Shown here in pieces: positions 3,775 to 39,850 of a stretch of DNA of 41,001 bases; position 1 is the first letter of the stretch; the number at the start of each line of letters is the position of its first letter. A model generated the notes under the pieces. That model was not told where the DNA came from. It made no database searches and worked only from the letters and a program-made list of their open reading frames with translations. Where the stretch lies: IMG/VR virus record IMGVR_UViG_3300012982_000015, positions 1 through 41,001 of that record. One strand, 5' to 3'. The position numbers and the translations under genes are program-made. The DNA is from a virus. Taxonomy: Duplodnaviria; Caudoviricetes.

Positions 3775-4343
3775 CCGAGTTTGACCAGCCCTCCTTTGAA
3801 AAGCGGGTCGCCCTGGCCGCCTTGGCCGCCGTAGGGCGTGCCGCCGCCGCCCGCCGGGCCACCGCCCGAGGTCACCGGCGCCGCAATCTTCGCGCCGGCG
3901 CCGCGCCTGGTCACGACCATGACCGTGGTGCCGCCATCGGTTGCGGCCGAGTCCTGGCCGCCCTGCACGTAGTAGTTGAGGTTGGAGTGGACGACGCCGG
4001 TGTCCTGCTCGACGTAGTCAACCGCGTAGAGCACGTTCCCGTTGCCGCCGTTCACCTGAGTGTCGACGTTGGCCGAGAAGTCCAGCGCAAACGGATAGAG
4101 CGCCTCGGGCAACGAGTAGCTGTAGCCGTCGTCGGCCGATCGCGGCAGCGGTACGGACTCGCCGTTGCGGAACTGAAGCTGGTTGCCGTTGGCGTCCGCA
4201 GTGAAGTACTCGTCAGCCACGGCCCCGAAACGAACGAGCGCGTTGAGCGCGACGAGGACGTCCTCAAGAGCGATGTTGCCGGCCGTCCAGGCAGTATCCG
4301 GGATGTCGAACCATCCGCCGGGGAGAGTCAGCGCGATCGGCAT
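3771..4343 (-). CDS. Tail tip protein, single-domain paralog of 2932-3774 with Gly-rich C-terminus
   Basis: NGESVPLPRSADDGYSY and NYYVQGGQDSAATDG motifs. Confidence 0.7.
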   Translation of the reverse strand: MPIALTLPGGWFDIPDTAWTAGNIALEDVLVALNALVRFGAVADEYFTADANGNQLQFRNGESVPLPRSADDGYSYSLPEALYPFALDFSANVDTQVNGGNGNVLYAVDYVEQDTGVVHSNLNYYVQGGQDSAATDGGTTVMVVTRRGAGAKIAAPVTSGGGPAGGGGTPYGGQGGQGDPLFKGGLVKLG

Positions 4344-5707
4344 CAGAAGATCCTCCCGGCGAGGGTGCCGTCCGACTGCAGGCCAGTGTCGGCCGCCTGG
4401 AAGAGGTACTGCGCTTTCTGTGCTGCCGTGGCCGCGGTCCAGACCGGGATCGCGTCGGGCGCGTACTGCAGAGCCGTGCGGCCGGACATCACCGAGACGT
4501 CCAGCAGGTCGAACTCGATCTGCCCGCGGTCGAAGCGCGGCGTGACGCCCAGCACCTCGTAGAGCCGCGCCGTCACGCCCACCGTGCCGGTGGTCAGGTT
4601 GGGCAGCAGGCGGTGCGTGACCGAGACATAGTCGCCGACCTCGACGATGATGCCCTGCAGCGACGAGTGCGCCAGGCGAATGCGGCCGGTCGGGTTGCCG
4701 TAGCGTTGGAAGATGCGCCGCGCGGCGATTCCGATGCGGCTCGCTCCCTGCAGGTTGGTGCGCAGACCCCGGCTCTCGATGACGTGGTTCTGCCCGAGGC
4801 CGTACTTGTTGACCGACGTGCCATCGACGATGGGGATCGAGGTCAAGAAGTTCTGACCGTCGAAATCGAGCCGCCCCTCGACCAGGTTGACGATGGTCTG
4901 CGATTGCACCGTCGGGATCCCGATGATGTTTGAATCGGTCAGCGCGAACGCGGCCGCCGGCAGCGAGGGCGCCAGCATGTCGTGGATCGACACCCGACCA
5001 TCATAGCGAACGAACATATAGAGTCCGTTGGCGCGGCAGATCTCGTTTTCGAGCCACTGCAGGGCCTCGACCGCCTTGTCGAGCCGCCAGATGCAACGCG
5101 TGGCGGCAAAGCGGCCATTCTGCAGGCTGGTAAAGGCGGCGGTGTCGATCGACCCAACCGGGATAGAGAGCTCGGTCTCAAGCACGTTGAGCGCGATCTG
5201 CAGCGGGTTGCCGTCCACGGTACGGAAGTTCTTCTTCGAGGTCGCGGTCAGCCCGTCGTCGCCCAGCGTGTACGCCTTGGTCTTGAGCGTGCGCTTCTTG
5301 TCGCGGATGACCACGTAGTAAGACGTGGTATCGGGCGCTGGGTCCAGCTTCTCGACCAGGCCGGTGTAGAGCGTGATGTAGTCCGCCAGGGCGAGCCCTG
5401 TAAAGCCCACCTGCAGCGTCGCCGTGAGGCCGTACCAGGTGACCGAGCTGAACAGAGCGAGGATGGCGCGATTGATGTCCACGATCTCGACGCGCAGCTC
5501 GCCGATCGAGCTCTTACCGGCGAGGTCGCTGACCGTCTGCGGTCGGCCGCCGGGGATCTTGAGCCAGGGTTTCCACCCGGCAAACGTGGTCGACCTTGAG
5601 CTGTACACAGTAGCCGGCGCGCCGGCGCCTGAAAAGCTCAGCGTATAGATCGGCTCCTGGTAGCCGGCGTTGCGTTTGGCGTCGAAGTTGGCGGTGGTGG
5701 GGATCAT
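4343..5707 (-). CDS. Tail tip hub (Tal/baseplate-hub-like) protein
   Basis: Position after Dit-like gene; SVNKYG, VEVGDYVSVT motifs typical of hub proteins. Confidence 0.7.
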   Translation of the reverse strand: MIPTTANFDAKRNAGYQEPIYTLSFSGAGAPATVYSSRSTTFAGWKPWLKIPGGRPQTVSDLAGKSSIGELRVEIVDINRAILALFSSVTWYGLTATLQVGFTGLALADYITLYTGLVEKLDPAPDTTSYYVVIRDKKRTLKTKAYTLGDDGLTATSKKNFRTVDGNPLQIALNVLETELSIPVGSIDTAAFTSLQNGRFAATRCIWRLDKAVEALQWLENEICRANGLYMFVRYDGRVSIHDMLAPSLPAAAFALTDSNIIGIPTVQSQTIVNLVEGRLDFDGQNFLTSIPIVDGTSVNKYGLGQNHVIESRGLRTNLQGASRIGIAARRIFQRYGNPTGRIRLAHSSLQGIIVEVGDYVSVTHRLLPNLTTGTVGVTARLYEVLGVTPRFDRGQIEFDLLDVSVMSGRTALQYAPDAIPVWTAATAAQKAQYLFQAADTGLQSDGTLAGRIF

Positions 5708-6156
5708 GGTGCGTCCGCCGCCTCGCTCCAGCCCATCAGCGCATCGAGCAGCTGGTTATTGGTGTTGACCGACGATTCGAAGCGGAACCGCATCTCGACG
5801 GTGTACATCCGCGGCGAGCGGTAGCGGATCTGCGAGGTGGTCTCCATCGAGCGCATGGTGAAGCCGAGCTCGGTGCGATCGGCGTCGGGATAGAACGTGA
5901 AGGGTTGGCCCTTGATCGCGACGCGCTCGAAGTTGCGCCAGGCATCGAGGTCCTGGCCGAACTGCACCACCTCGACCTCAAACGCGAAGTACTCCTGGCG
6001 GTTGATGAAGATCACGAGCGGCGTGCCGTCCGAAGAGACGTTGATGGCCCGCTCACAGGTCAGGTCCATGGGGATGCTGACGCGTGGAAACTGCAGGAAC
6101 TGCAGCGTCTGCGGGTTGGCGCTGTCGTCGGTGTAGTTGATCTTCGGGTAGCCCAT
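5704..6156 (-). CDS. Distal tail (Dit-like) protein
   Basis: 150 aa, first structural gene after tape measure; GQPFTFYPD motif. Confidence 0.6.
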   Translation of the reverse strand: MGYPKINYTDDSANPQTLQFLQFPRVSIPMDLTCERAINVSSDGTPLVIFINRQEYFAFEVEVVQFGQDLDAWRNFERVAIKGQPFTFYPDADRTELGFTMRSMETTSQIRYRSPRMYTVEMRFRFESSVNTNNQLLDALMGWSEAADAP

Positions 6157-6157
6157 G

Positions 6158-6186
6158 TTGACGACTTCAACCTGCCGTGAAAGACT
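6158..6186 (+). promoter_or_regulatory. Antisense sigma70-type promoter A (TTGACG-17 bp-AAGACT, extended -10 TG)
   Basis: -35 at 6158-6163, -10 at 6181-6186, ATG 8 nt downstream; conserved with promoter B. Confidence 0.6.
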
Positions 6187-6194
6187 CCCGGGTT

Positions 6195-6344
6195 ATGAGC
6201 GACGAGAAACCACCAGCCCCGCCACCGCCCCAAGAACGCCCACAGCCCGATTCCCTGCCCGATCCCGAAGTGGGCTCGAACTGGACCGGTGGCTCGGTAC
6301 GCGTTCCGCTCAGCGACATAGCACCGATACGAAAATCGAAGTAA
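6195..6344 (+). CDS. Proline-rich 49-aa peptide A (MSDEKPPAPPPPQERPQPDSLPDPEVGSNWTGGSVRVPLSDIAPIRKSK), missing from ORF track
   Basis: Hand-translated; paralog of 9639-9797; own promoter; overlaps 3' end of 6310-6867 by 35 bp. Confidence 0.7.
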   Translation: MSDEKPPAPPPPQERPQPDSLPDPEVGSNWTGGSVRVPLSDIAPIRKSK

Positions 6345-6867
6345 GCGCAAGGATCAGCGCCCCGGCTTCACACCAGATCGCACCGACAAGCAACTTCCCC
6401 TTGCTTGCCGCCCTTAACAACTCGAAGCGCACAGGAAACGCCAGGGCATGCGCCATCTTTCCTAATGCTTGGGGTGGTGCGTGCCTGTTCGCCGTTCCGA
6501 GGGCGATCATTTCGTCTGGTAGTCCCGGTCTCCAACGGGGCACCGAAACAAGCGCGCTCAGCACTGAAGCTGCCGCGAATGCCGCAGCGGCAAAGAGTCC
6601 GGTAATAACCACGGTCCTACTCAGCGCCGGATGGGCGCCATGCGCCATTTCGAAATTGGCCAGCGTCCACCCAGCAGCGACGATAAGGAGATTCAACCGC
6701 AGCAGATTCAAGGCCTTGCCCTCGATGAGGGCTACGGCAGACTCCGCCCACGCGAACCGATACTTTGCGTAGTCAAAGACCCAGGAGAAGTCCGCGCCTT
6801 CGCGCGGAATAAAGGCCGCCGTTTCATTACCCCACTTCTTGAACTCTTCTTCAACGTTTGGTTTCAT
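6310..6867 (-). CDS. 3-TM membrane protein A (topology resembling Pycsar PycTM-type effectors)
   Basis: EGKALNLL-TM1-TM2-VPR...SKGKLL-TM3; colinear paralog of 9760-10386; AT-richer than neighbours. Confidence 0.75.
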   Translation of the reverse strand: MKPNVEEEFKKWGNETAAFIPREGADFSWVFDYAKYRFAWAESAVALIEGKALNLLRLNLLIVAAGWTLANFEMAHGAHPALSRTVVITGLFAAAAFAAASVLSALVSVPRWRPGLPDEMIALGTANRHAPPQALGKMAHALAFPVRFELLRAASKGKLLVGAIWCEAGALILALTSIFVSVLCR

Positions 6868-6876
6868 AGCTTTCTT

Positions 6877-9597
6877 TTACCCCATCACCGCCACGGGCGA
6901 GCCGTTCTGGTAGACGTGCGTGGCGTTGAGCTGCATGCCGCGGTTGCCGGTGGACTGATTAAACAGGTCTATCAATTTGTCGATCGTATCGGCCGAGACC
7001 ATGTCGCCGTAGACGTGGATCGTCGTCCCGCTGGTCGCCGGCTGCTGCTGGCCGCTGCCGGCCTTCACGCCGCCGCCGGCGCCGCCCGTCGTCGCCGCGC
7101 GCGGGGCGGGCTGCTGACGCTGGCTGCCTCCGGAGGATCCTCGGCCGCCACCGCCGCCACCGGAGAACATGCCGGCCACCTGCTGGCCGGCGGCGATACC
7201 GAAGAGCACGGCGGCCGCCGTATGCTCGGCGCCACCCAGGAAGTCGCCGGAGGCGAAGGATTTCATGGCCTCGGCGATCTGCACCTTGATCTGAAAGAAC
7301 GAGGTCTCCTTCAGCGCGCCGATCACCCCGGCCGACTTCGCCTTCTCGGTGGCCACGGCGCTCACCGCCTCCTTCTGGTGGGCCAGGATCTGCTGGTTGA
7401 TGGCGCCCAGGATGCGGTGCGCGACCGTCGCGAAGCGGCTGCCGAACAGGTCCGATGCCTGGATCATCGAGTCGTAGTTCTTCTGCCAGGACGCGGTGAA
7501 CTCGTTGTGCTTCGTCGCCAGCACGTCGAGCGCCCGGGTTTCCTTGGCGTGCGCCGCCGCCACGGCCTGGCTGGCGAGGGTCGCGATGCGCGCCCGCTGC
7601 TCGTCGGTGGTCGCCATCTTGGTGAGCTGCGCGGTCTCCATCTGGATGTCGGCGATCTCCTGCAGCATCGCCTGGTGGATCTTGGCCTTCCCGGTCAGCG
7701 AGGACTCGAGGTAGCGGTTGGTCATGTCCTGCAGCTTCTTCAGGTGCCCGTCGAACTCGGCCGCCTTCTTGTCGGCCGCGCCCTTCTCCTCCTCGGCGAG
7801 CCGCTTGATCAGCTTCTCGCGCAGCTCGACCAGCATTTGATTGTGGGCGGCATCGAGCGCGTCGAGCTTCTGGTACTTCTTGCGCTCGCTCTCGATTTCG
7901 CGGTCGATGGCGGCGACCTTGCGCGCATGCGACACGACGCTTGCGGCGTCGATCTTGTTGGCCATCTCCTCGTCGAGCGCCGAGAGGCTGTCCAGGCGCT
8001 TGTCGTTCAGGTCCTTGAGCTTCGCCTCGCGCTCTTCGGCGAGCGCGATGACGAGCTGGTGGTACTCCCGCTCGCGCTGCGCCAACTCGGCACGGGTGAG
8101 CTTGCCGTGGGCAGCAAGCTTGCGGTAGGACTCGATCTCGCGGTTCGCAGCCGCCGTCTCGCGCTCGAACTGGCGCTCGACCGCCGCCTCCGGCTTGGCC
8201 GTCTGATCGTGCAGCAGCGTGATCTCCTCGGAGACGCGCCGCAGGGAGTCGGCCAGCTTGTCGCTCGCCACCGCGGCCGCCTTGCTCTTGCCGGTCAGGT
8301 GCAGCTCGGTGGCGCGCCCGAGGCTTTCAAGCGCGGCGGTTGAGCCCTTCGTGCCCTCTGCGTAGGTGCTTACAATGTCTGTCCAGGTCTCGGTGGCGAC
8401 GGCCTTCATGGCCGCCCAGTGTGCCTTTGCGGAGGTTAAATCTCCGCGACGCAGGTCCGACACGAGCTGATAGCCAAGTACAAACTCATTCAACTCGCCG
8501 GCGAGGAGCTTCCCGATAGTCACCAGAACATCAAAGGCCGCTTTCGCGACGAACGTAAGCCCATTGAACACGTATCCGAGCCCCTCGATCGCGGTGGAAA
8601 TGTCGGCTGCGTGTGAAGCAATAAAGTCCGCCGCCGACTGCATCGCTGCGGTGATGGCGGGCATGACCTTCTGCCCGATCGTGACCTCGAGGCCCTCCAT
8701 GGTGAATTTAATCCGCCGCATAGACTCAAGAAACGCGACGGACTGCTTCGCGCTCACATCGCTGAATCCCAGGCCCATCTTGTTGGCTTCCTCGGAAGCC
8801 TTGCGGAGGGCCACGCTCCCTTGGTTGAGGATCGGGATCATTTCCTTCCCGCTCCGACCGAAGACGGCCATGGCCGCAGCGGTTTTGAGGCCGCTAGAGG
8901 CGGCGCCGTGGAACTTATCTGCCATGTCGGCCAGCAGGTCGATGTTCGGCCGCAACTTCCCATGCGCATCGTTGGCTTGGATACCGAGCGCTGCGAGCGC
9001 CTTTGTCGCCGTCGATCCAGCGGTGGCGAAAGGTGAGAGGTTGCGATCCATGATCGCTACGCCGTTGGCCAGTTGCTCGAAGTTCGCCCCGATCATCCCT
9101 GCCACGACGCGCAGCCCCGAGAGGTCCTGCACGCTAAGTCCGATCTTCTGGTGCATCAGTTCGAGATGCTCGCCGAGTTCGGCACTCTTCTTCGCCATCT
9201 CGAATAGCCCGGCGCCGACAGCAACCACGGCACCAGCAACAACCGCACCCAGTGCCACCCAGCCCGTTCCGGTGCCCTTCAGGCTCTTCTGCAGATTCGC
9301 CTGTGCCGCAGCCACGCGGTGCGCCGCCTGCACCTCCGCGGCCGCCGTCTCCTCGGCCGTGGTCGCGGCCTTGACCATGGCCGCGCGCTTCGCCTCGATC
9401 GCCGCGATCTCCTGGTCGTAGGCGGCGCGGATCTGCTTCGAGCTGCCAAACATGCGCGTCGCGAACTCGCCCATCTGCGTGCGCATCGCTCCCATGTCCG
9501 AAGTGAAGAGCGCGCGGAAGCGCTGGATGTTCCCAATCGCTTCGTCGGGGTTGGCCTTGATCTCGAAGAGCAGGCCGGCTACGGAGTCCATTGCCAT
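6877..9597 (-). CDS. Tail tape measure protein
   Basis: 906 aa Ala-rich helical protein after the tail chaperones; AAAMAVFGRSGKEMIPILNQG TMP motif; hydrophobic segments. Confidence 0.93.
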   Translation of the reverse strand: MAMDSVAGLLFEIKANPDEAIGNIQRFRALFTSDMGAMRTQMGEFATRMFGSSKQIRAAYDQEIAAIEAKRAAMVKAATTAEETAAAEVQAAHRVAAAQANLQKSLKGTGTGWVALGAVVAGAVVAVGAGLFEMAKKSAELGEHLELMHQKIGLSVQDLSGLRVVAGMIGANFEQLANGVAIMDRNLSPFATAGSTATKALAALGIQANDAHGKLRPNIDLLADMADKFHGAASSGLKTAAAMAVFGRSGKEMIPILNQGSVALRKASEEANKMGLGFSDVSAKQSVAFLESMRRIKFTMEGLEVTIGQKVMPAITAAMQSAADFIASHAADISTAIEGLGYVFNGLTFVAKAAFDVLVTIGKLLAGELNEFVLGYQLVSDLRRGDLTSAKAHWAAMKAVATETWTDIVSTYAEGTKGSTAALESLGRATELHLTGKSKAAAVASDKLADSLRRVSEEITLLHDQTAKPEAAVERQFERETAAANREIESYRKLAAHGKLTRAELAQREREYHQLVIALAEEREAKLKDLNDKRLDSLSALDEEMANKIDAASVVSHARKVAAIDREIESERKKYQKLDALDAAHNQMLVELREKLIKRLAEEEKGAADKKAAEFDGHLKKLQDMTNRYLESSLTGKAKIHQAMLQEIADIQMETAQLTKMATTDEQRARIATLASQAVAAAHAKETRALDVLATKHNEFTASWQKNYDSMIQASDLFGSRFATVAHRILGAINQQILAHQKEAVSAVATEKAKSAGVIGALKETSFFQIKVQIAEAMKSFASGDFLGGAEHTAAAVLFGIAAGQQVAGMFSGGGGGGRGSSGGSQRQQPAPRAATTGGAGGGVKAGSGQQQPATSGTTIHVYGDMVSADTIDKLIDLFNQSTGNRGMQLNATHVYQNGSPVAVMG

Positions 9598-9602
9598 CTC
9601 AG

Positions 9603-9631
9603 TTGCACCCCGCCAGTGTCCGTGCCAGAAT
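9603..9631 (+). promoter_or_regulatory. Antisense sigma70-type promoter B (TTGCAC-17 bp-CAGAAT, extended -10 TG)
   Basis: -35 at 9603-9608, -10 at 9626-9631, ATG 7 nt downstream; CCGTGccagaattCCGG versus CCGTGaaagactcCCGG in promoter A. Confidence 0.6.
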
Positions 9632-9638
9632 TCCGGAA

Positions 9639-9797
9639 ATGTCGGACGAGAAGCCCGCGCCGCCAGTGCCCACGCCGCCGGTCGCAGCCCCAGCCAAGCC
9701 AGAGATGCGGCCGGCTCTCGAATTAAAACTAAAGGCGGAAGCTCCCATGCGCGTGCACCTCAGCGACAACGCACCAGACTTGCCAGAGAAAGAATAA
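9639..9797 (+). CDS. Proline-rich 52-aa peptide B (MSDEKPAPPVPTPP...MRVHLSDNAPDLPEKE)
   Basis: Paralog of 6195-6344; overlaps 3' end of 9760-10386 by 38 bp; start reassigned from 9591 to 9639. Confidence 0.7.
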   Translation: MSDEKPAPPVPTPPVAAPAKPEMRPALELKLKAEAPMRVHLSDNAPDLPEKE

Positions 9798-10386
9798 AAA
9801 GGAAGATAGCCGCGCCGGTGAGCAGATAGGCGAGGCTCACGCGTGCACCCTTTTGTCGCATGATGCCAACCTCAAACCTGGTGGTGCCGTCGAGCAATAA
9901 AGTCGCTGCTCCCAGCGCAGCCTCTTCCTCTTTAAAGGCGTTTGCGATCTGAATCATCTCCGCAGCCGGCGGGTACAGGACCCGACCGGATGGATAGATC
10001 GCAAGGCAGGCTGCGGCGACTGCCGCGACATACACGACCCCCGAACAGAGCAGCGCCGACAGGCGCCACCCGGTGATCATCGGCGCGCCCAACCACTGAA
10101 CGGCCGTCCATGCCGCCGTCATCACCACGAGCTGCGCGCGCAGCAGACGCCGGGCGGTCTCGGCGAGCGTGGCGAGCTTCTGTTGGCTGTCGGCGTGCCG
10201 CTCGCGCGCATAACTCCAAGTCCACAGGTAGACGGCGCCGGCTATTGTTCCGGGATAGTCGCCGTCCGGCGAGTCAGGCTGCGCCACTTCGCCGTTGAGA
10301 TGCGCCACTCGGGCCATGTACTCGCGCAAGAGGCTCGCGGTGGTCGGCCCGAACGCCCATTCGTAAATCCGCTTCATCAGGTTCAT
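9760..10386 (-). CDS. 3-TM membrane protein B (paralog of 6310-6867)
   Basis: YARERH...ARRLLR-TM1-TM2-YP...RFE...QKG-TM3-CR aligns with protein A. Confidence 0.75.
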   Translation of the reverse strand: MNLMKRIYEWAFGPTTASLLREYMARVAHLNGEVAQPDSPDGDYPGTIAGAVYLWTWSYARERHADSQQKLATLAETARRLLRAQLVVMTAAWTAVQWLGAPMITGWRLSALLCSGVVYVAAVAAACLAIYPSGRVLYPPAAEMIQIANAFKEEEAALGAATLLLDGTTRFEVGIMRQKGARVSLAYLLTGAAIFLFILSLASLVRCR

Positions 10387-10398
10387 CGTTGCCCTCGC

Positions 10399-10617
10399 TT
10401 ACCAGAACACTGTATTCCCAGCCGCCGCCCCCTCCGCGTCCACTCCCTGCCGGCTCATCTCGCGGAGCCGGTCGCGTTCGGCGCCCTCGCAGGCGAGGTG
10501 CGCCGCGAGATCGAAGTCAAGCGCCAGCACCGGGTCCGCGATCGCGGCGAGCACGCTTGGCCTGGTTCCGAACCGCGACGCCGCGGCCGCCAACATCGCG
10601 AACTCCGGCGTCGCCAC
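10399..10617 (-). CDS. Tail assembly chaperone C-terminal extension (gpT/GT-like), probably reached by frameshift
   Basis: Overlaps the chaperone ORF in the +1 frame, upstream of TMP; no obvious RBS. Confidence 0.65.
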   Translation of the reverse strand: MATPEFAMLAAAASRFGTRPSVLAAIADPVLALDFDLAAHLACEGAERDRLREMSRQGVDAEGAAAGNTVFW

Positions 10618-11035
10618 GAAAGGTGGCCAGGCGCGCCACCTCCTCGGAGCGCGTCACCCAGCCAAACAGGAAACTCGCGTCCTCGGCGCCGAGGTCGCGG
10701 TAGTGCAGCTCGCCCGGCTCGAGCGCGACGGCATCGGGCACGATGCGCGGCTCAATTAGGGCCGAGACGATCATGTCCCGCATGAACTCCGCGACCGCGT
10801 CAATGCACTCCGGCTGGATCTCGGCCGCCGGCGTTTCGCCCTGCAGGAAGCGCTGGAAGGAGACCAGCGACAACCCCTGCGGCAGACGCCCGGAGACGAA
10901 CCACGCCCCGAGGTCGGGGCGCTCGACGCGCACCGTCACGCCCGAGGGCAGCGTCAGCTCGGTGGTCGCGACGGGGTCGGCCGGGCGCGGCATGCGCGCC
11001 ACGCCGGCCAGATATTTGCTGCGGTCGAAGCTCAT
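10517..11035 (-). CDS. Tail assembly chaperone (gpG-like)
   Basis: ELTLPSGVTVRVERPDL...GRLP...LIEPRI...ATFR pattern; lies between tail tube and TMP. Confidence 0.75.
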   Translation of the reverse strand: MSFDRSKYLAGVARMPRPADPVATTELTLPSGVTVRVERPDLGAWFVSGRLPQGLSLVSFQRFLQGETPAAEIQPECIDAVAEFMRDMIVSALIEPRIVPDAVALEPGELHYRDLGAEDASFLFGWVTRSEEVARLATFRGDAGVRDVGGRGVAVRNQAKRARRDRGPGAGA

Positions 11036-19433: not shown

Positions 19434-21803
19434 TCATGCCGCACTCTCCACTTCGTCACGGAACGTCGCCACGATCACGCAGCGGCACCGGTCGCCGCCT
19501 TCGCAGTCGGGATTCGGGGTGTCGGGCAGGTCGGCTTCCTGGGCCGCCTCCTGGCCGTCGGCTCCTTCGCACACCTCGCAGGTGTCGATGTCGAGCAGCG
19601 CGGAGTAGGCGTAGCTCTTGATCTCGTCCGCGAACTCGGCGAACGCATGGCTGCGGCCATCGCTGTACGCCTCGTTCGTGGCCTCGGCCGCGAGGCCGTC
19701 GATCCAGGCGTCCTTGGCGTCTTCGAGATCCTGCTGCGCCTGAATGAGCGCCTCGCCCTTGGTGTCGGCGCCGGGATTCTTTTTGAAGTCGAGCGCCCGG
19801 TTCACGCTGCGCTGCGTGAGGTTGTTGGTCAGCTCGACGACCGCCGCTTGGGCGTAGAGCTGCAGTGCGTCGTCGTCCGCCGCGGCGTCTACGGCTCCAG
19901 TGGCCGCGTCCGCCGCCAGCAGCTTGCCGGTCTTGGGGTTGACCGGGGGCTTGCCGGCGAGCTGCCGGCCGCGCTCGGCAGCCACCTGGCGGCGGCCATC
20001 CTGCTGCACCAAACGCAGCTCGCGCGCGATCGCCGCCACCAGCCTGGGGTCGGCCGGCACGCTGACCTGGTGCATGCGCCCGGTGGGCGCGCCCATGGCC
20101 TTGTGCAGCGCCTCGGCGACGATGGCGGGCTTGGCGGCGCGCAGCTCCGCGGCCACACGTCCCTTGCCGTCGCCGAGCGTCGTCACCATGTCGGACAGCG
20201 AGAGCGAGAGCTCCGCGCCGCGTGGCGCGCGCCTGACCTTGACGCCCTCGACTTCGGCAAGCAGCAGTATTCCTCCGGACCGTGGCGTGCGACCGGCCGG
20301 CGACTCGCTCGCCTTGACCTCGGTCTTCGCCTCGTCGGCGATCGCGTTGGGATCGTCGTCGCTGACGCGCACCACGGTGGCCGCGTAGCGCGGCCGCGAT
20401 TTGCCGCGCTCCGGCAGGCTCATCGCGTCGCGGAGCGCGTCCTCCATCTCGTCGTCCGGGTGCACGACGTCCACCTTGTCGAGCGCGAGCTTGCCGAGGA
20501 TCTCCGCCACCTGCGAGAGCGAGACGTAATGCACGCGCGGCGCAACCAGCGTCGGATAGCCGGACGGCCGCTTGGCGGGACCGCCCGGCAGCGACTTCGA
20601 CTTGACGGCGCCGACGCCCTCGTAGTTCAGATCCACCAGGTCGCGCACCGTCGAGTGGTTGATTCGGAAGTAGACCTGGTTGGTGAACGCCTGCGCGGCG
20701 ATGAAAAAGAAGTCCTGCTGCGAGACGCCCAGCGCACGGTTGCCGGTCGCCGCCTGCCCCGCGTCCATGAACATGGCCAGGGCACACTTCGAAATCTGCT
20801 CGTTGTGATGCCGGATCGATTCCTTGCAGTCGCGGACCTGACCCATCACGCCCTTGAGTGACAGCTTGACGCCCGGCGGCATGTAGGCGCCGGCGGACTC
20901 GTGGCTGGCCAGGTTGGTCAAAAACGTGAAGGCGATCTGCTTGTCCTCGGTGCTCAGGCCCTTCCCGCCGGGTTCGTGTTCGATCACGGGCACGCCCAGG
21001 CCGTTGCGCTCGCAGGCAATGCCGTCGATCGCGTAGAGCTGCTCCTTGTAGTACCAGTGCTTGTAGGCGGCGCGCAGCACCGAGCGACCAAAGAAGTTCG
21101 CGCCCTCCTGCTGGAACGTGAACAGCCCCAGCTTCCAGGCGGGGATGTCGACGTTCTTGAAGTTGTTGCCGCCGTAGCCGTACTGCTGCAGCGCGATCAG
21201 CGACTCGCCGTCGTCCTCGGTGAGAAACCGGTAGAAGGTCAGCGGCAGGCGGGGTGCGAGCTTCGCGATCTGGATCTGGTCGCCGGCGACGCGGTAGACC
21301 TTCTCGTAAGCGGCGCAACCGAAGTCGAGGCCGAGCAGGAGGTTTTCGACGACGTCTCCCCAGTTCTGCGAGATCTTCTGGCCGCCCTTCGAGATGAACT
21401 CGAGGCCGCCGAACAGGTTGTCCTCCACCATCTTCGCGATCTCGACGTCGATCGGGCTGTTACTGGCGGGCTCGACGCGGCCGTCGCCGGCGCGCGATCG
21501 CACCGGCAGCTTCAGCACCGCGAGCGTCGCCGCCACCTGCGCATCGCCGCGCCGCATCTGCTCGTAGACCCGCATGCCGTCGCGGCCGTAGAGATCGCCG
21601 CGGTACTCGCCCAGGTCCTGGACGAAGCCCGAGATGATCGGGGTGCCGGCAACGCCCAGCTCCTGAAAGCGCGAGACCTCCTCGGATTCCTTGAGCGCCG
21701 CCGCCGAGGTCATCGTGCCCGAGCCGAGCGGCCCGGTCGTGGCGATCGGCACGGCAGCTTGCTCGGTGCCGTTAAAGCTCAGGCTGAAGGGGCCGAGGCG
21801 CAT
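19434..21803 (-). CDS. Portal protein (Mu gp29/DUF935-like) fused to MuF (gp30-like) head morphogenesis domain
   Basis: FFGRSVLRAAY, ERNGLGVPV portal motifs; C-terminal YSALLDIDTCEVC...PNPDCEGGDRCRC MuF motif in the same frame. Confidence 0.88.
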   Translation of the reverse strand: MRLGPFSLSFNGTEQAAVPIATTGPLGSGTMTSAAALKESEEVSRFQELGVAGTPIISGFVQDLGEYRGDLYGRDGMRVYEQMRRGDAQVAATLAVLKLPVRSRAGDGRVEPASNSPIDVEIAKMVEDNLFGGLEFISKGGQKISQNWGDVVENLLLGLDFGCAAYEKVYRVAGDQIQIAKLAPRLPLTFYRFLTEDDGESLIALQQYGYGGNNFKNVDIPAWKLGLFTFQQEGANFFGRSVLRAAYKHWYYKEQLYAIDGIACERNGLGVPVIEHEPGGKGLSTEDKQIAFTFLTNLASHESAGAYMPPGVKLSLKGVMGQVRDCKESIRHHNEQISKCALAMFMDAGQAATGNRALGVSQQDFFFIAAQAFTNQVYFRINHSTVRDLVDLNYEGVGAVKSKSLPGGPAKRPSGYPTLVAPRVHYVSLSQVAEILGKLALDKVDVVHPDDEMEDALRDAMSLPERGKSRPRYAATVVRVSDDDPNAIADEAKTEVKASESPAGRTPRSGGILLLAEVEGVKVRRAPRGAELSLSLSDMVTTLGDGKGRVAAELRAAKPAIVAEALHKAMGAPTGRMHQVSVPADPRLVAAIARELRLVQQDGRRQVAAERGRQLAGKPPVNPKTGKLLAADAATGAVDAAADDDALQLYAQAAVVELTNNLTQRSVNRALDFKKNPGADTKGEALIQAQQDLEDAKDAWIDGLAAEATNEAYSDGRSHAFAEFADEIKSYAYSALLDIDTCEVCEGADGQEAAQEADLPDTPNPDCEGGDRCRCVIVATFRDEVESAA

Positions 21804-23185
21804 TAGAACCGCCCTCCTGCCCCGGCCATCAGCGGCGAGCCGAATAACGCCGCATCCCGGAACGAGGTCGCCTGCTGCGAGGCCGCCGAGATCGCCAGCG
21901 CCAGCGCCCAGAACTCGTCGGCGTGGCCGGCGTCGGTGCGCGCGGCGTCGAAGCGCAGGTTGCCGTTCGAGCTGACGTAGCGCTTGACGGCGTGAATCGC
22001 GCGGCGGACGGCGGGGGATGCCGGGATGCGCAGCGTGCGATCCTCAAACGCCCGCTTGGTCTCGACCGCCATCGCCTCCTTGGTCTGCTGCGTGAACTGC
22101 ACGCGCTCGATCTTGTGGCCCCAGCGCCCGTGCAGCCGCTCGGCCAGCATGTCGCCGACGCTGCCGTGGCTGGCGTCCACCGCGAGGCGCGTGACATGGG
22201 GCATCACCGCGTCCACCGTCGCCTCCTGCTCGGCGAAGGGCATGCGGGTCATGGTGGTGACCGCGCGCGTCACGAGGAGATCGCCGACGCGCAACGCGAT
22301 CCAGAGGATCGAGCGGTCCTTGTGCCGCCCGATGTCGAGGCCGGCGTAGAGCGGGGCGCAGAGCGCGAGGTCCGAATCGAGCGTCGCGAGATCGCTCTCC
22401 GCCGCGGTAATCAGGTCGTAAGGGATGTAGTTCTCGCCGTCCGAAAGAAACTGGCAGCAGTACTCCTGCAGGAACGTGTCCTCGTCGTCGGCCAGCTCGC
22501 GGCAGTCCTCGACCGTGACCGGGAAGCCCTGGGCGACGGCGTCGTAGATGTCGACCCAATGGCTGGACCAGATGCCGTGCTGCCGCTGGGTGGGCGCGGC
22601 GCCCGTCGCGAGCCCGGCCTTGCGGCACAGCTCGTAGTACTTGCCGGTCTGGTAGTTGGGCGTCGAGACGACCAGCAGGCGGTGGCCCAGCATGGTGGCG
22701 GCGCCGGCCGCCTTCCACAGCTTGTGGCTGTTCTGGTGAAAGCCGAACTCGTCCAGGAAGACGTTGCCGCCGAAGCCGCGCAGCGCGTCGGGATGCGCCG
22801 TCATGGCGCTGATCACCGACTTGTTCGGGAGCTGCGCCTCGAGCTTCATCACCCGCACGTCACCGAAGAACAGGTCGGTCGGGATCTCGTCGATCGCGAG
22901 CTGGTGCCCGTAGCCCTTGAAGCGCTTCTCGGCGAGCTGCATGGCGGCGAAGTGGTTGGCCACCTCGAGCATCGCCTCCTTGGCGGTGTCCTGGGTGCGG
23001 CTCACGATGCGCCACTTCGTGCGCTGGTCGGCCGAGGCGTCGGCGATCTCGAGCGTCGACGCGAAGGTGAAGCCGATGCGCCGCGACTTCACCGCGATCT
23101 TGCGGCGCGAGCGGTCGTTGAACCAGTCGAGCTGGTAGGGCCGCAGGGGAACCGCGGCGGAGATCTCAGGCTGCGACGATGCCAT
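21803..23185 (-). CDS. Terminase large subunit (Mu gp28-like), 460 aa
   Basis: LRPYQ, KSRRIGFT, VFLDEFGF, VVSTP, AGLDIGR, GHADEFWALALA; start reassigned to 23185. Confidence 0.95.
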   Translation of the reverse strand: MASSQPEISAAVPLRPYQLDWFNDRSRRKIAVKSRRIGFTFASTLEIADASADQRTKWRIVSRTQDTAKEAMLEVANHFAAMQLAEKRFKGYGHQLAIDEIPTDLFFGDVRVMKLEAQLPNKSVISAMTAHPDALRGFGGNVFLDEFGFHQNSHKLWKAAGAATMLGHRLLVVSTPNYQTGKYYELCRKAGLATGAAPTQRQHGIWSSHWVDIYDAVAQGFPVTVEDCRELADDEDTFLQEYCCQFLSDGENYIPYDLITAAESDLATLDSDLALCAPLYAGLDIGRHKDRSILWIALRVGDLLVTRAVTTMTRMPFAEQEATVDAVMPHVTRLAVDASHGSVGDMLAERLHGRWGHKIERVQFTQQTKEAMAVETKRAFEDRTLRIPASPAVRRAIHAVKRYVSSNGNLRFDAARTDAGHADEFWALALAISAASQQATSFRDAALFGSPLMAGAGGRF

Positions 23186-23726
23186 AGACCTCCTCGCGGA
23201 TTTTGCGCTTGGTTTCCTCGTCGAGGTTGCGCGCCTCGACCAGTGCCGCATCGATGGCGCGCGTGGCCTTCTGCGCCTTCTCCTGGATCTGTTCGAGCTT
23301 CAGGTCCAGCTCGCGCTTCTGCTGCTCGAGCTGTGCCCGCTGCTGCGCGATGTGCTCGTACTGCACCTGCAGCCAGCCCACCTTGATCGGGTCGGCGTCG
23401 GCCAGCTTGTGCTGGTTTTGCAAAAACGACTGCACCAGGTTCATGCGCACCAGCTCGCCCGACTGCAGCGCGCCGTGCTGCTCGATCACCTTCAGCGCCG
23501 CCTCGGCCTGCGTGGTGGCCATCTCGAGGATCCTCGCCTGCCGGGAGTACTTCTGCTGGTGGTAGCGCTGCAGCGTCGAGAGGTGCAGCTTGCCCGGCGC
23601 CTTGCGGGTCGCGGCGACGTGGTCCACGATCTCGCTGTAGGTGTAGCCCTGCGCGATCATGCGATCCACCAGCTTCCGGGTCTCTTCCCAGCCCGGGCGG
23701 TCGAGGAGTAGGGTGGTGCGCCGCAT
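23166..23726 (-). CDS. Terminase small subunit (Mu gp27/DUF3486-like)
   Basis: TYSEIV...LSTLQRY HTH, coiled coil, IREEVYGI C-terminus; directly upstream of large subunit. Confidence 0.85.
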   Translation of the reverse strand: MRRTTLLLDRPGWEETRKLVDRMIAQGYTYSEIVDHVAATRKAPGKLHLSTLQRYHQQKYSRQARILEMATTQAEAALKVIEQHGALQSGELVRMNLVQSFLQNQHKLADADPIKVGWLQVQYEHIAQQRAQLEQQKRELDLKLEQIQEKAQKATRAIDAALVEARNLDEETKRKIREEVYGIVAA

Positions 23727-27127: not shown

Positions 27128-27343
27128 TTATTGCGTGTCTTTCGAGACGTCCCTCTCGCTCGATGGCGGCTCCGAGGTTACGCCTTTCCTCGTCTCCGCT
27201 CCTTCATGGCGGAGGTGATCGAGCACTACATGTTCAACGTGTCTTCTGCGTTTTTCGCTGCAAATTTGAGAGTAGAGCTCGGCGAGCTTCTTTGGCTGCA
27301 AGGTATTGATCGTATTGCGTGGAAAGTCGTACAAGTTCCCCAT
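27128..27343 (-). CDS. Small protein overlapping the repressor 3' end
   Basis: GGAGG Shine-Dalgarno at 27350-27354 before ATG. Confidence 0.45.
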   Translation of the reverse strand: MGNLYDFPRNTINTLQPKKLAELYSQICSEKRRRHVEHVVLDHLRHEGAETRKGVTSEPPSSERDVSKDTQ

Positions 27344-27641
27344 GCAGGTCCTCCGTCAACGGAAAGCTGGCATCTTCCTCAGCAGACACCGATAAATTTA
27401 GAACCGCCTTGGCCGCAAGGCCAGGGTGTTGCCGATACATTGCGCGCAATGCCTTGAGTGCCCAGATCTCCTCGTACGACGAAGCGACAGGAGACTCGTC
27501 GAGCCACATCATGAGTCCCTGCGTGGTGGCGCCGGTTATATCGGTAGCGCGCACCGCTGCCACGCGTTCGATTCGCTCGTATAGATCCTCAGGAATCCTT
27601 GCCTGAAGGGGCCGTTTCGGGATTTTAGGATTCCGCGCCAT
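27234..27641 (-). CDS. Putative immunity repressor with N-terminal ribbon-helix-helix domain, 135 aa
   Basis: KRPLQARIPEDLYERIERVA Arc/CopG pattern; divergent from the early operon; start reassigned to 27641. Confidence 0.7.
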   Translation of the reverse strand: MARNPKIPKRPLQARIPEDLYERIERVAAVRATDITGATTQGLMMWLDESPVASSYEEIWALKALRAMYRQHPGLAAKAVLNLSVSAEEDASFPLTEDLHGELVRLSTQYDQYLAAKEARRALLSNLQRKTQKTR

Positions 27642-27697
27642 TTTGGTGTTGGCTACATGGTGCCCAACTCGTTGATTCTGGGCAAGTTGCATATTTA

Positions 27698-27752
27698 TCA
27701 ATACGTATGCATGAGATGTATTGACAATCGAAGGCATTTGCACTACAAATGC
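27698..27752 (+). promoter_or_regulatory. Early promoter and operators
   Basis: TTGACA (27721-27726)-17 bp-TACAAA; palindromes TCAATAC...GTATTGA (27698-27724) and GCATTTG-N5-CAAATGC (27734-27752) overlap -35 and -10. Confidence 0.75.
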
Positions 27753-27758
27753 ATTCGC

Positions 27759-27941
27759 ATGAGGAAGCACTTGGCCGCTCGATCAAAGTTTCCGGTTTCT
27801 GCGCGGGTCTCGCGGGAAGTGGATGCGCAGATCTCTGCGATCGCGGTTCGCGAGCGGCGCTCCGTCTCGGCTGTGATTGAAATTCTCCTGGACGAAGCGC
27901 TCGCGGCGAGGCGCAGGAGGACAGAGAAAAATGTCGCCTAA
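27759..27941 (+). CDS. Ribbon-helix-helix protein (Cro/Ner functional analogue), 60 aa
   Basis: FPVSARVSREVDAQISAIAVRERRSVSAVIEILLDEAL; first early gene. Confidence 0.8.
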   Translation: MRKHLAARSKFPVSARVSREVDAQISAIAVRERRSVSAVIEILLDEALAARRRRTEKNVA

Positions 27942-37856: not shown

Positions 37857-38362
37857 TGCCCTCCTCGATCACGGCCGGACAGCTCGTCTGCCTCCAGACT
37901 CTCTGGTCGCGTCGCATGCGCGCGGCCGGCGTGGCCGACCAGGCGGAGGCGCGGCAACTCCGCCACGCGTTCATCCGGGAGCTGACCGCCGGCCGCGCGG
38001 CCGAGACCAAAGAGCTCACGCTCGCCGACGCGCGCCGCGTCATCGAGGTGCTCAAGGGCGGCGCCCGAATCCCGGATGGCGACACCGCCCACGCCGCCGG
38101 CACGCACGGCCGCCGCGGCCGCCAGGCGCCCGGCGCTGAGGTCATGGTGGGAGCACAGCAGATCGAGCTGCTGCAGGGCTACGCCGGCCTTCTAGGCTGG
38201 TCGAGGGAGCGTCTGGACGGCTTCATCTCACGCCAGCTCCGCGGCCGGCAACTTCGCACAATGGCTGATGCCAACCGCGTGCTGTGGGGGTTAAAGAGGA
38301 TGGTCCGCCAGCCGCCGTTTGTAAGGCGAAACAAAAGCGAAAATTCGGGCTATGATCTTTGA
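37856..38362 (+). CDS. gemA: GemA/Mu gp16 (DUF1018)-like protein
   Basis: KELTLADARRVIEVLK...QQIELL...WSRERLDGFISRQ...ANRVLWGLKRM. Confidence 0.8.
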   Translation: MPSSITAGQLVCLQTLWSRRMRAAGVADQAEARQLRHAFIRELTAGRAAETKELTLADARRVIEVLKGGARIPDGDTAHAAGTHGRRGRQAPGAEVMVGAQQIELLQGYAGLLGWSRERLDGFISRQLRGRQLRTMADANRVLWGLKRMVRQPPFVRRNKSENSGYDL

Positions 38363-38364
38363 TC

Positions 38365-39508
38365 ATGGCCGACACGAAGCCCGTACTTGAGCATGACGGA
38401 TCGAGGATTTACCGCGCGAGTACTTTAGCGCTGCCGCTGCCTGACGCGTCTGTCCATGCGGTCGTGACCTCGCCGCCATACTGGGGCCTCCGCAACTACC
38501 AAGGCGAACAGCGGGTAGATTGGGCGAGCGGCGAACCGGTCCCGTTCGGACAAGAGACCACACACGATTGCACCGGCCGCCACTGCGGCGATTGCTACGT
38601 CTGCCATTCGATCGAGATCCTGCGCGAGCTGCGCCGTGTGCTTCGCCCGGATGGGGTTTTATTCTGGAATCTGGGCGACACCTACTGGCACAGCGGCTTG
38701 CTCCGCGAAGGGCGTTCGCCGGACGACCTAAAAGAGAAGGACCTGTGCCTGATGCCGTTCCGCGTCGCCCTGGCTGCGCAGGCTGACGGCTGGTGGGTGC
38801 GTTCGGTGATTACTTGGAGGAAGACAAACCCTGTCCCGCGTGCGGTGGTCGGCCGGCCGAAAGACGTTCACGACCACATCATCGTGCTGACGCCGTCCAG
38901 ATCCAGCTATTGGGATGAGGAGGGCTTCCGCTTCGGCCGCGATCGGAATCGGGAGCCGGTCATTGAGACCGTTTGGTCGTTCGCGACGCAGCGCTACAAG
39001 GGCGCACACTTCGCCACGTTCGCCGAGGAGCTGCCCCGCCGCTGTATCCCTGGCGGCCACCAGCGACCATGGCTGCTGCCGGCAGTGTGGCGCTCAGTGG
39101 CGGCGGATTCTGGACATCTCCTATAAGCCGATCGCAGGGAAGTCCAGGGGCGGCGCGAAGCAGGTTGAGGCCAGGGGCCAGCGGCAGGTTTTCGCCGGCC
39201 TTGAAGTGCGCAAGCATCGCGCGGTTGAGACCGTAGGATGGAAGCCAGGCTGCGACTGCCGCGGTGGCGTGCCGCTGCCCTCGGTGGTACTCGACCCCTT
39301 CGCCGGCAGCGGCACCACGGCGCTGGCCGCCCTGGCTCTGGGGCGTCGGTTCGTCTTGGTCGACGTGGCCTACCAGGACCAACAGCTCGAACGGATCAGG
39401 CCCCGGCTAGCTGGCCAACTTGGTGACACGCCGACCGATGCTTCCGCGAGTACTAAAAAGGGCCACAGAACAGCCTCCGGCTGCGCTGTCAGCAAGATGG
39501 CGGTTTAG
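38365..39508 (+). pseudogene. Beta-class amino-DNA methyltransferase (SPPY, probably N4-C) split by a single-base frameshift
   Basis: VVTSPPYW and HFATF in one frame; VLDPFAGSGTT in the +1 frame; removing one C at 39048-39050 restores RRCILAATS. Confidence 0.85.
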
Positions 39509-39760: not shown

Positions 39761-39850
39761 ATGAGCGATGAGCGATGAGGGTAGACCTGCTGCCGCACTG
39801 AATCGTTACATCAAATGGCGCCGCGCGCGCGTTCGCTCATTGCTCATCGC
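39758..39850. repeat. Host heptamer-repeat inverted element: (GCGATGA)x3 pairing with TCGCTCATTGCTCATCGC
   Basis: 39758-39775 is complementary to 39833-39850 at 17/18. Confidence 0.7.

Follow-up and report, generated by a model that had tools for sequence, protein, structure and literature searches.

We analyzed a window of 41,001 nucleotides, which corresponds to the whole 41,001-base contig of a Mu-like transposable siphophage and in which genes for a transposase, a transposition ATPase, a Mu-type portal, a protease, a major head protein and a tape measure protein were identified. On either side of the tape measure gene lies a cassette of two genes, one encoding a membrane protein on the minus strand and the other a small peptide on the plus strand, whose convergent reading frames overlap at their 3' ends:

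6158–6186, plus strand: promoter-like site A, with −35 and −10 elements separated by 17 nt and a TG extension; the −10 element ends 8 nt before the ATG, which predicts a leaderless transcript.
6195–6344, plus strand: peptide A, 49 aa, Pro-rich and predicted to be disordered.
6309–6317, plus strand: conserved [FL][STD][ED] motif of peptide A (LSD), whose antisense contains the stop codon of membrane gene A.
6310–6867, minus strand: membrane protein A, PycTM-like, three-helix, 185 aa, 9 nt past the tape measure stop.
6877–9597, minus strand: tape measure protein gene (PHROGs E 6e-27), given for context only.
9603–9631, plus strand: promoter-like site B, with −35 and −10 elements separated by 17 nt and a TG extension; the −10 element ends 7 nt before the ATG.
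9639–9797, plus strand: peptide B, 52 aa, Pro-rich.
9759–9767, plus strand: LSD, the conserved motif in peptide B, which overlaps the membrane gene B stop codon.
9760–10386, minus strand: membrane protein B, PycTM-like, 208 aa, 12 nt past a 72-aa ORF (10399–10617).
21803–23251 and 23166–23726: terL and terS, adjacent to each other.

The initial annotation had described this arrangement as a duplicated module, and the four ORFs with their quoted motifs and their overlaps of 35 and 38 nt were found exactly where it had placed them. The two membrane proteins are indeed homologous (BLASTP 36% over 45 aa, E 7e-7; 30% in global alignment). For the peptides, the shared RVxLSDxAP is visible by eye, but the BLASTP alignment covers MSDEKP only, with an E of 0.76. 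Similarly, two of the three proposed transmembrane helices per protein appear as hydropathy segments above 1.6, and the third comes from an AlphaFold model and from homology to PycTM. The membrane genes have a GC3 of 0.64 and 0.74 versus 0.86–0.94 for core phage genes, which marks them as add-ons. Copies A and B are not sisters in the tree, and a single clade was not rejected (p-AU 0.26). Next to copy B, a tail-chaperone-like ORF (10517–11035) overlaps the 72-aa ORF, an arrangement known from chaperone pairs made by frameshifting; in this stretch (10399–11035) we could pick out no slippery site with clarity.

The host of the phage is probably an acidobacterium, since a UvrC-like gene at the right end, compared with Acidobacteriota genomes, shares 39–48% identity with genes in 12 of the 151 searched, and the named homologs of the membrane protein belong to Terriglobia and other Acidobacteriota. 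A third MSDE at 39768, considered as another peptide, was rejected as the antisense of this host UvrC-like gene. Elsewhere in the window, the immunity end of the phage carries a bacterial PH-domain membrane moron (PF03703; 26632–27120), preceded by divergent small ORFs that we labeled by eye as ribbon-helix-helix-like (27234–27770 and 27657–27941), and a DNA methylase at 38359–39508 is split across two overlapping frames, both matching PF01555.

Searches with the single window membrane proteins returned the window proteins only, whereas a profile built from both retrieved 32 relatives among 1.84 billion representatives. An indexed search with alignment A2 gave three already known members and nothing further, tblastn against 50,697 phage records and plasmid records gave 0 matches, and further scans of viral sequences for the outer clades turned up no genuine members. 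DNA context was obtained from a motif scan that yielded one viral locus, three real loci among 21 from genomes and 24 real loci among 65 from metagenomes, 21 of these 24 being full-length with downstream DNA. Excluded were 44 of the 65 metagenome loci (41 of them chance matches) and 18 of the 21 genome loci (18 chance matches); the other three of the metagenome loci, left unscored, were L120, at a contig end, L135, truncated with 61 nt downstream, and L131, a 33-residue remnant in which no peptide was seen. A convergent ATG-initiated ORF of 50–96 codons, ending inside the last membrane helix, was present in all 21 metagenome and all four other loci. Removal of identical copies left 17 distinct loci, which together with the two window copies make 19 pairs. 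The antisense frame is identical in 19/19 pairs and, among the homologs alone, in 17/17 distinct full-length loci. As a control, 664 mechanically called ORFs comprised 144 with a convergent ORF, 72 of them in that frame and none polar; with a cut-off chosen after seeing the family, polar composition was reached by 17/19 family peptides versus 0/664 controls. The distant member L146 (genome G492, unpublished) keeps this frame with a convergent ORF of 29 aa that is rich in Pro and Lys, and no such ORF was seen at L147, an orphan remote relative.

Several features indicate that the small ORFs are genes in their own right. Outside the overlap, the uncorrected pN/pS of the peptides, from protein-guided alignments of eight pairs, was 0.28–0.77, changes were commonest at third positions, and gaps within the closest groups came in multiples of three, a pattern that indicates purifying selection on the peptides in this region. 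The N-terminus is variable and the C-terminal [FL][STD][ED] motif is present in 14/19. For the 12 overlapping cases that could be tested, the motif survived synonymous shuffling of the membrane gene with a probability of only 0.01–0.15, and the motif of L092 is located outside the overlap; as judged from these tests, the motif is not forced by the membrane-protein sequence. The stop codon of the membrane gene is the antisense of the peptide motif in 10/19 pairs; if the motif has the form F-D, the membrane protein continues past that point. The constraint in the overlap therefore seems to lie on the peptide. Together, the shared frame, the pN/pS values and the motif uphold the earlier proposal of a cognate two-gene module under selection. 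MSDEKP was tried as a family signature and rejected, since the strict pattern had 0 viral matches and a looser one 13, all in unrelated genes; the signature of the family is the C-terminal motif. The peptides of L083, L089, L111 and L128 form one clade with a different motif that is repeated in three of them, and these internal duplications (L083:2249–2506, L089:619–891 and L111:1879–2169) recall multi-core precursors or multivalent binders. Pairs with more similar peptide motifs also have more similar membrane proteins (Mantel rho 0.74, 0/5000 permutations, 15 pairs); this signal is expected from the joint inheritance of overlapping genes and is no sign of binding. The structural model of the peptide is without secondary structure (pTM 0.20). 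Unrelated viral ORFs of 50–58 aa with a similar N-terminus, which are Trp-rich, occur in 12 viral contigs (L036–L048).

The distribution of promoters differs between the two genes. In the window, where promoters had been described as kept in both copies, a standard scan found 0 sites in 5900–10700; what stands are weaker sites below its threshold, scoring 8/12 (A) and 7/12 (B), each plus the TG extension, which draw their support mainly from the homologs. Across the family, a score of at least 8 was found upstream of 14/19 peptides versus 4/19 membrane genes, against a background of 1.7% of random window positions that may be low, the window being GC-richer than some loci. Peptide starts have leaderless geometry in 7/19, and most others have a Shine-Dalgarno-like site. 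Judging from these scores, the peptides usually have their own sigma-70-like promoter. In the phage-borne copies, comprising all five homolog loci and both window copies, the membrane genes are co-oriented with the late genes. The initial view of a peptide with its own predicted promoter facing a membrane gene in the late operon thus agrees with both observations.

This layout could also mean that the antisense transcript is the working part, silencing the membrane gene in a type I-like manner and countering leaky late transcription, with the peptide a passenger. The genes do converge and overlap, and no plus-strand terminator-like site lies directly past the peptide in either window copy, so that peptide transcripts could cover the membrane gene. 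We consider this explanation very improbable in view of the protein-level selection and the motif, the lack of any Rfam match for the cassette, and the leaderless or Shine-Dalgarno starts. Antisense RNA action may nevertheless exist alongside the peptide.

Outside the window the cassette occupies varied sites. Of the 17 loci, five lie in late operons of related phages, six by IS1595 transposases and three by IS1-like transposases (L083 being assigned to the latter by its likeness to L089); one sits between two DDE_Tnp_1_4 transposases, one is chromosomal and one is too short to assign. Transposases are therefore neighbors at 10/17 loci, and at L103 and L084 the membrane gene overlaps an IS1595 transposase by 4 nt or lies 3 nt past it. 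On the phages, the cassette follows a homolog of window gene 5704–6156 (L049, L092 and L100), a homolog of window gene 4343–5707 (L123) or the portal (L067). The genes it follows are a distal-tail-like gene, a hub-like gene and the portal, three late-operon sites other than that of the window. As its neighborhoods indicate, the cassette is mobile and is carried by phages and insertion sequences of Acidobacteria. Because the insertion site differs among related phages, the tape measure gene owes its two flanking cassettes to a local accident, either two insertions or one duplication, and not to a family trait, and the specific tie to the tape measure protein suggested at the outset finds no support, given these three other sites and the loci beside transposases. 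Two further suggestions are likewise unsupported: expression of the membrane protein in late lytic growth only as a general rule, as non-phage copies exist, and two specificities, as both window peptides carry RVxLSDxAP. At L060:1270–6779 a pair of identical DDE_Tnp_1_4 transposases in inverted orientation flanks the cassette, as in a composite transposon. Other genes carried by the insertion sequences around the cassette frequently encode a proteasome-subunit-like protein (PF00227 in L081:115–921 and L086:142–2493), and in L086 and L071 (142–1032) an N6/N4 methylase that carries a fused Mrr-like nuclease domain; L089:2256–3134 is among the cargo regions noted.

The phage-borne layout recalls the Tab/anti-Tab pair of the Mu-like Pseudomonas phage JBD26, in which the defense gene is reported to have a promoter of its own on the opposite strand and the counter-gene is co-oriented in the late operon, with Tab encoded between the terminase genes and targeting the tape measure protein (PMC10884400). 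By analogy, the constitutive peptide would be the defense factor, a short-motif decoy that jams related phages during assembly, while the membrane protein made late would soak it up and so let the resident phage assemble. Its geometry matches that of tab/atab as described there, the membrane gene is co-oriented with the late genes throughout the phage-borne copies, and the promoters favor the peptide. The likeness seen here concerns gene layout in a shared type of phage, and there are differences: the cassettes lie at 6.2 and 9.7 kb whereas terS and terL are adjacent to each other, the cassette varies in site and also rides on insertion sequences, and its late partner is a membrane protein of effector type. 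We regard this analogy as rather unlikely to hold, since the transposase-linked (10/17) and chromosomal (one) loci keep the membrane gene without a need for self-immunity, the fold of the membrane protein is derived from that of an effector, and related phages do not keep the cassette next to the tape measure gene. Retention of the cassette outside phages argues against mere self-immunity.

What the membrane protein is, was approached by comparing folds and profiles. An AlphaFold2 model (47-row alignment, pLDDT 93.7) shows a bundle of three long helices (28–75, 83–108 and 131–184). The window proteins have no match in Pfam, PHROG, PADLOC or NCBIfam, and none of the four cassette proteins matches PHROG. 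Among 33 homologs, 17 match the PADLOC PycTM model at E ≤ 0.1 (best 5e-6) and five match PF18967 at E ≤ 0.1 (best 3e-5). The family profile aligned with a profile of seven PycTM-type proteins at 86% (E 5e-6, 146 columns), and comparison with PycTM clusters in the Atlas gave 0.95 for features and a TM of 0.65–0.66. The likeness to PycTM noted earlier was thereby substantiated, and these comparisons place the membrane protein among the remote relatives of PycTM. Foldseek returned generic helical bundles only (best E 0.14 in the PDB and 0.13 among viral structures), as did VIA-align (best Z 11.2, rmsd 3.9, 160 aligned), and a sequence search of solved structures (best E 0.019) identified no solved relative. 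Since the window proteins match no library model, an effector role is proposed from remote homology only.

In Pycsar, the membrane effector PycTM (PF18967) is accompanied by the cyclase PycC. The cassette protein is remotely alike in sequence and predicted fold, and its model matches the three-helix membrane bundle with a cytosolic loop, where hydropathy alone gives two segments. It differs from Pycsar in that the canonical loop motif of PycTM is replaced, the window proteins miss PF18967, and no cyclase accompanies it: none was found among the 48 window ORFs, and a cyclase profile built from four neighbors of PF18967 matches found nothing in the window or in 26 homolog loci, some with short flanks. 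By comparison, four of eight PF18967 loci of the same class have an adjacent cyclase-like gene; one is Pfam-confirmed, and the other three were assigned from their likeness to it and from cyclase motifs. Conversely, a convergent peptide comparable to that of the family was seen at 0/8 PF18967 loci.

A second set of relatives was found among membrane proteins encoded directly after graspetide-type ATP-grasp ligases, where the profile match to three such proteins was as good as or better than that to PycTM (96%, E 5e-9). These PycTM-like three-helix genes directly follow MvdD/RimK-type ATP-grasp ligases (L139:1291–3067, L140:149–1941 and L142:1147–3021), L140 and L142 also having a precursor-like peptide upstream, and may represent graspetide-gated effectors. 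They may correspond to clusters 18 and 40 of Makarova et al., who suggest that cluster 18 membrane proteins are peptide transporters (PMC8939145). The resemblance lies in a related three-helix protein near a short peptide gene; graspetide loci have a ligase and the peptide upstream, whereas the cassette has a convergent peptide and no ligase, none having been found among the 48 window ORFs or in a scanned selection of homolog neighbors. On this resemblance, the membrane protein could export the peptide or confer immunity to it, the peptide itself being a toxin or a signal; such a role has been proposed for the uncharacterized proteins of graspetide loci. We judge this quite improbable, since a promoter on the peptide and usually none on the membrane gene is the wrong way round for immunity, and since the window has no ATP-grasp gene.

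The same relatives bear on whether the peptide might activate the membrane protein, perhaps after being clipped or modified on infection, and so open a PycTM-like pore in place of cCMP/cUMP. Canonical PycTM disrupts the membrane once activated by its ligand (PMC11224242), and the cyclase is absent at the cassette; related proteins directly after ATP-grasp ligases with precursor peptides, and the three peptides whose repeated motif recalls multi-core precursors, would fit such gating. Against it, no modifying-enzyme or protease gene lies beside the cassette in the selection of neighbors scanned, and a ready activator would kill cells at every late-operon or transposase readout. The transposase coupling at L103 and L084 thus favors an inhibitor, as a constitutive activator would kill transposing cells, and gating by activation is in our view unlikely.

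Toxin–antitoxin systems offer further parallels. Type II modules are single operons with a small disordered partner, a protein antitoxin that binds the toxin and blocks it, and type I modules combine a non-coding antisense antitoxin with a membrane toxin gene in convergent 3' overlap. Like type II modules, the cassette has two genes, is mobile and encodes a small disordered partner; unlike them, it does not form one operon, its genes being convergent in 19/19. The convergent 3' overlap with a membrane gene is shared with type I, but the antisense strand of the cassette codes for a selected peptide and the membrane protein, of about 190 aa, is unlike those of type I. As proposed here, the cassette works like a toxin–antitoxin or abortive-infection module on a Pycsar-type effector, and it is outside the definitions of Pycsar, Tab/anti-Tab and type I or II toxin–antitoxin. 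In line with its initial assessment as not a described system, no account of a PycTM-like gene with a convergent peptide was found in the literature searched, supplements and subscription papers aside.

We favor, with somewhat less than even confidence, an explanation in which the peptide is a constitutive antidote that restrains a membrane toxin, making the cassette an abortive-infection or addiction module whose binding, toxicity and trigger are inferred. This antidote reading is the simplest because there is no cyclase, the peptide is obligate and co-inherited, it has a promoter, and the membrane gene would depend on read-through. Expression of the peptide would be constitutive, also in the lysogen, and driven by its own promoter, on a transcript that would in addition run antisense over the membrane gene. 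The mostly promoterless membrane gene would be expressed by read-through from the late operon or a transposase. The peptide would bind and restrain a cyclase-less PycTM-like protein that could otherwise depolarize the cell, and its C-terminal motif might occupy the cytosolic face where canonical PycTM takes the cyclic nucleotide. Host shut-off by a phage, degradation or capture of the peptide, or switch-on of the resident late operon would then free the membrane protein to kill the cell, resulting in abortive infection; loss of the element would likewise be punished by the freed protein, resulting in addiction. A weak point of the antidote reading is that the phage's own lytic late operon could make membrane protein in excess, outrun the peptide and harm its own burst, and such an excess would fit the Tab/anti-Tab logic better.

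If so, orphan PycTM-like genes might be explained by a partner that gene callers miss for being short, antisense and overlapping, and many more such pairs are probably unannotated. The cassette would be a first candidate phage-conflict module for Acidobacteriota mobile elements, and a two-gene, easily cloned system for peptide control of a nucleotide-signaling effector fold. It also provides a lead that the uncharacterized graspetide-locus membrane proteins may be effectors rather than transporters. More broadly, and as a tentative, somewhat doubtful extension, the PycTM fold may serve generally as a membrane killer gated by a ligand that could be something other than a nucleotide, with one branch gated by an antisense-encoded disordered peptide and another by ATP-grasp-cyclized peptides; the peptide would then be a bait or timer reporting phage take-over, and the cassette a peptide-guarded immune effector carried through Acidobacteria by Mu-like phages and insertion sequences.
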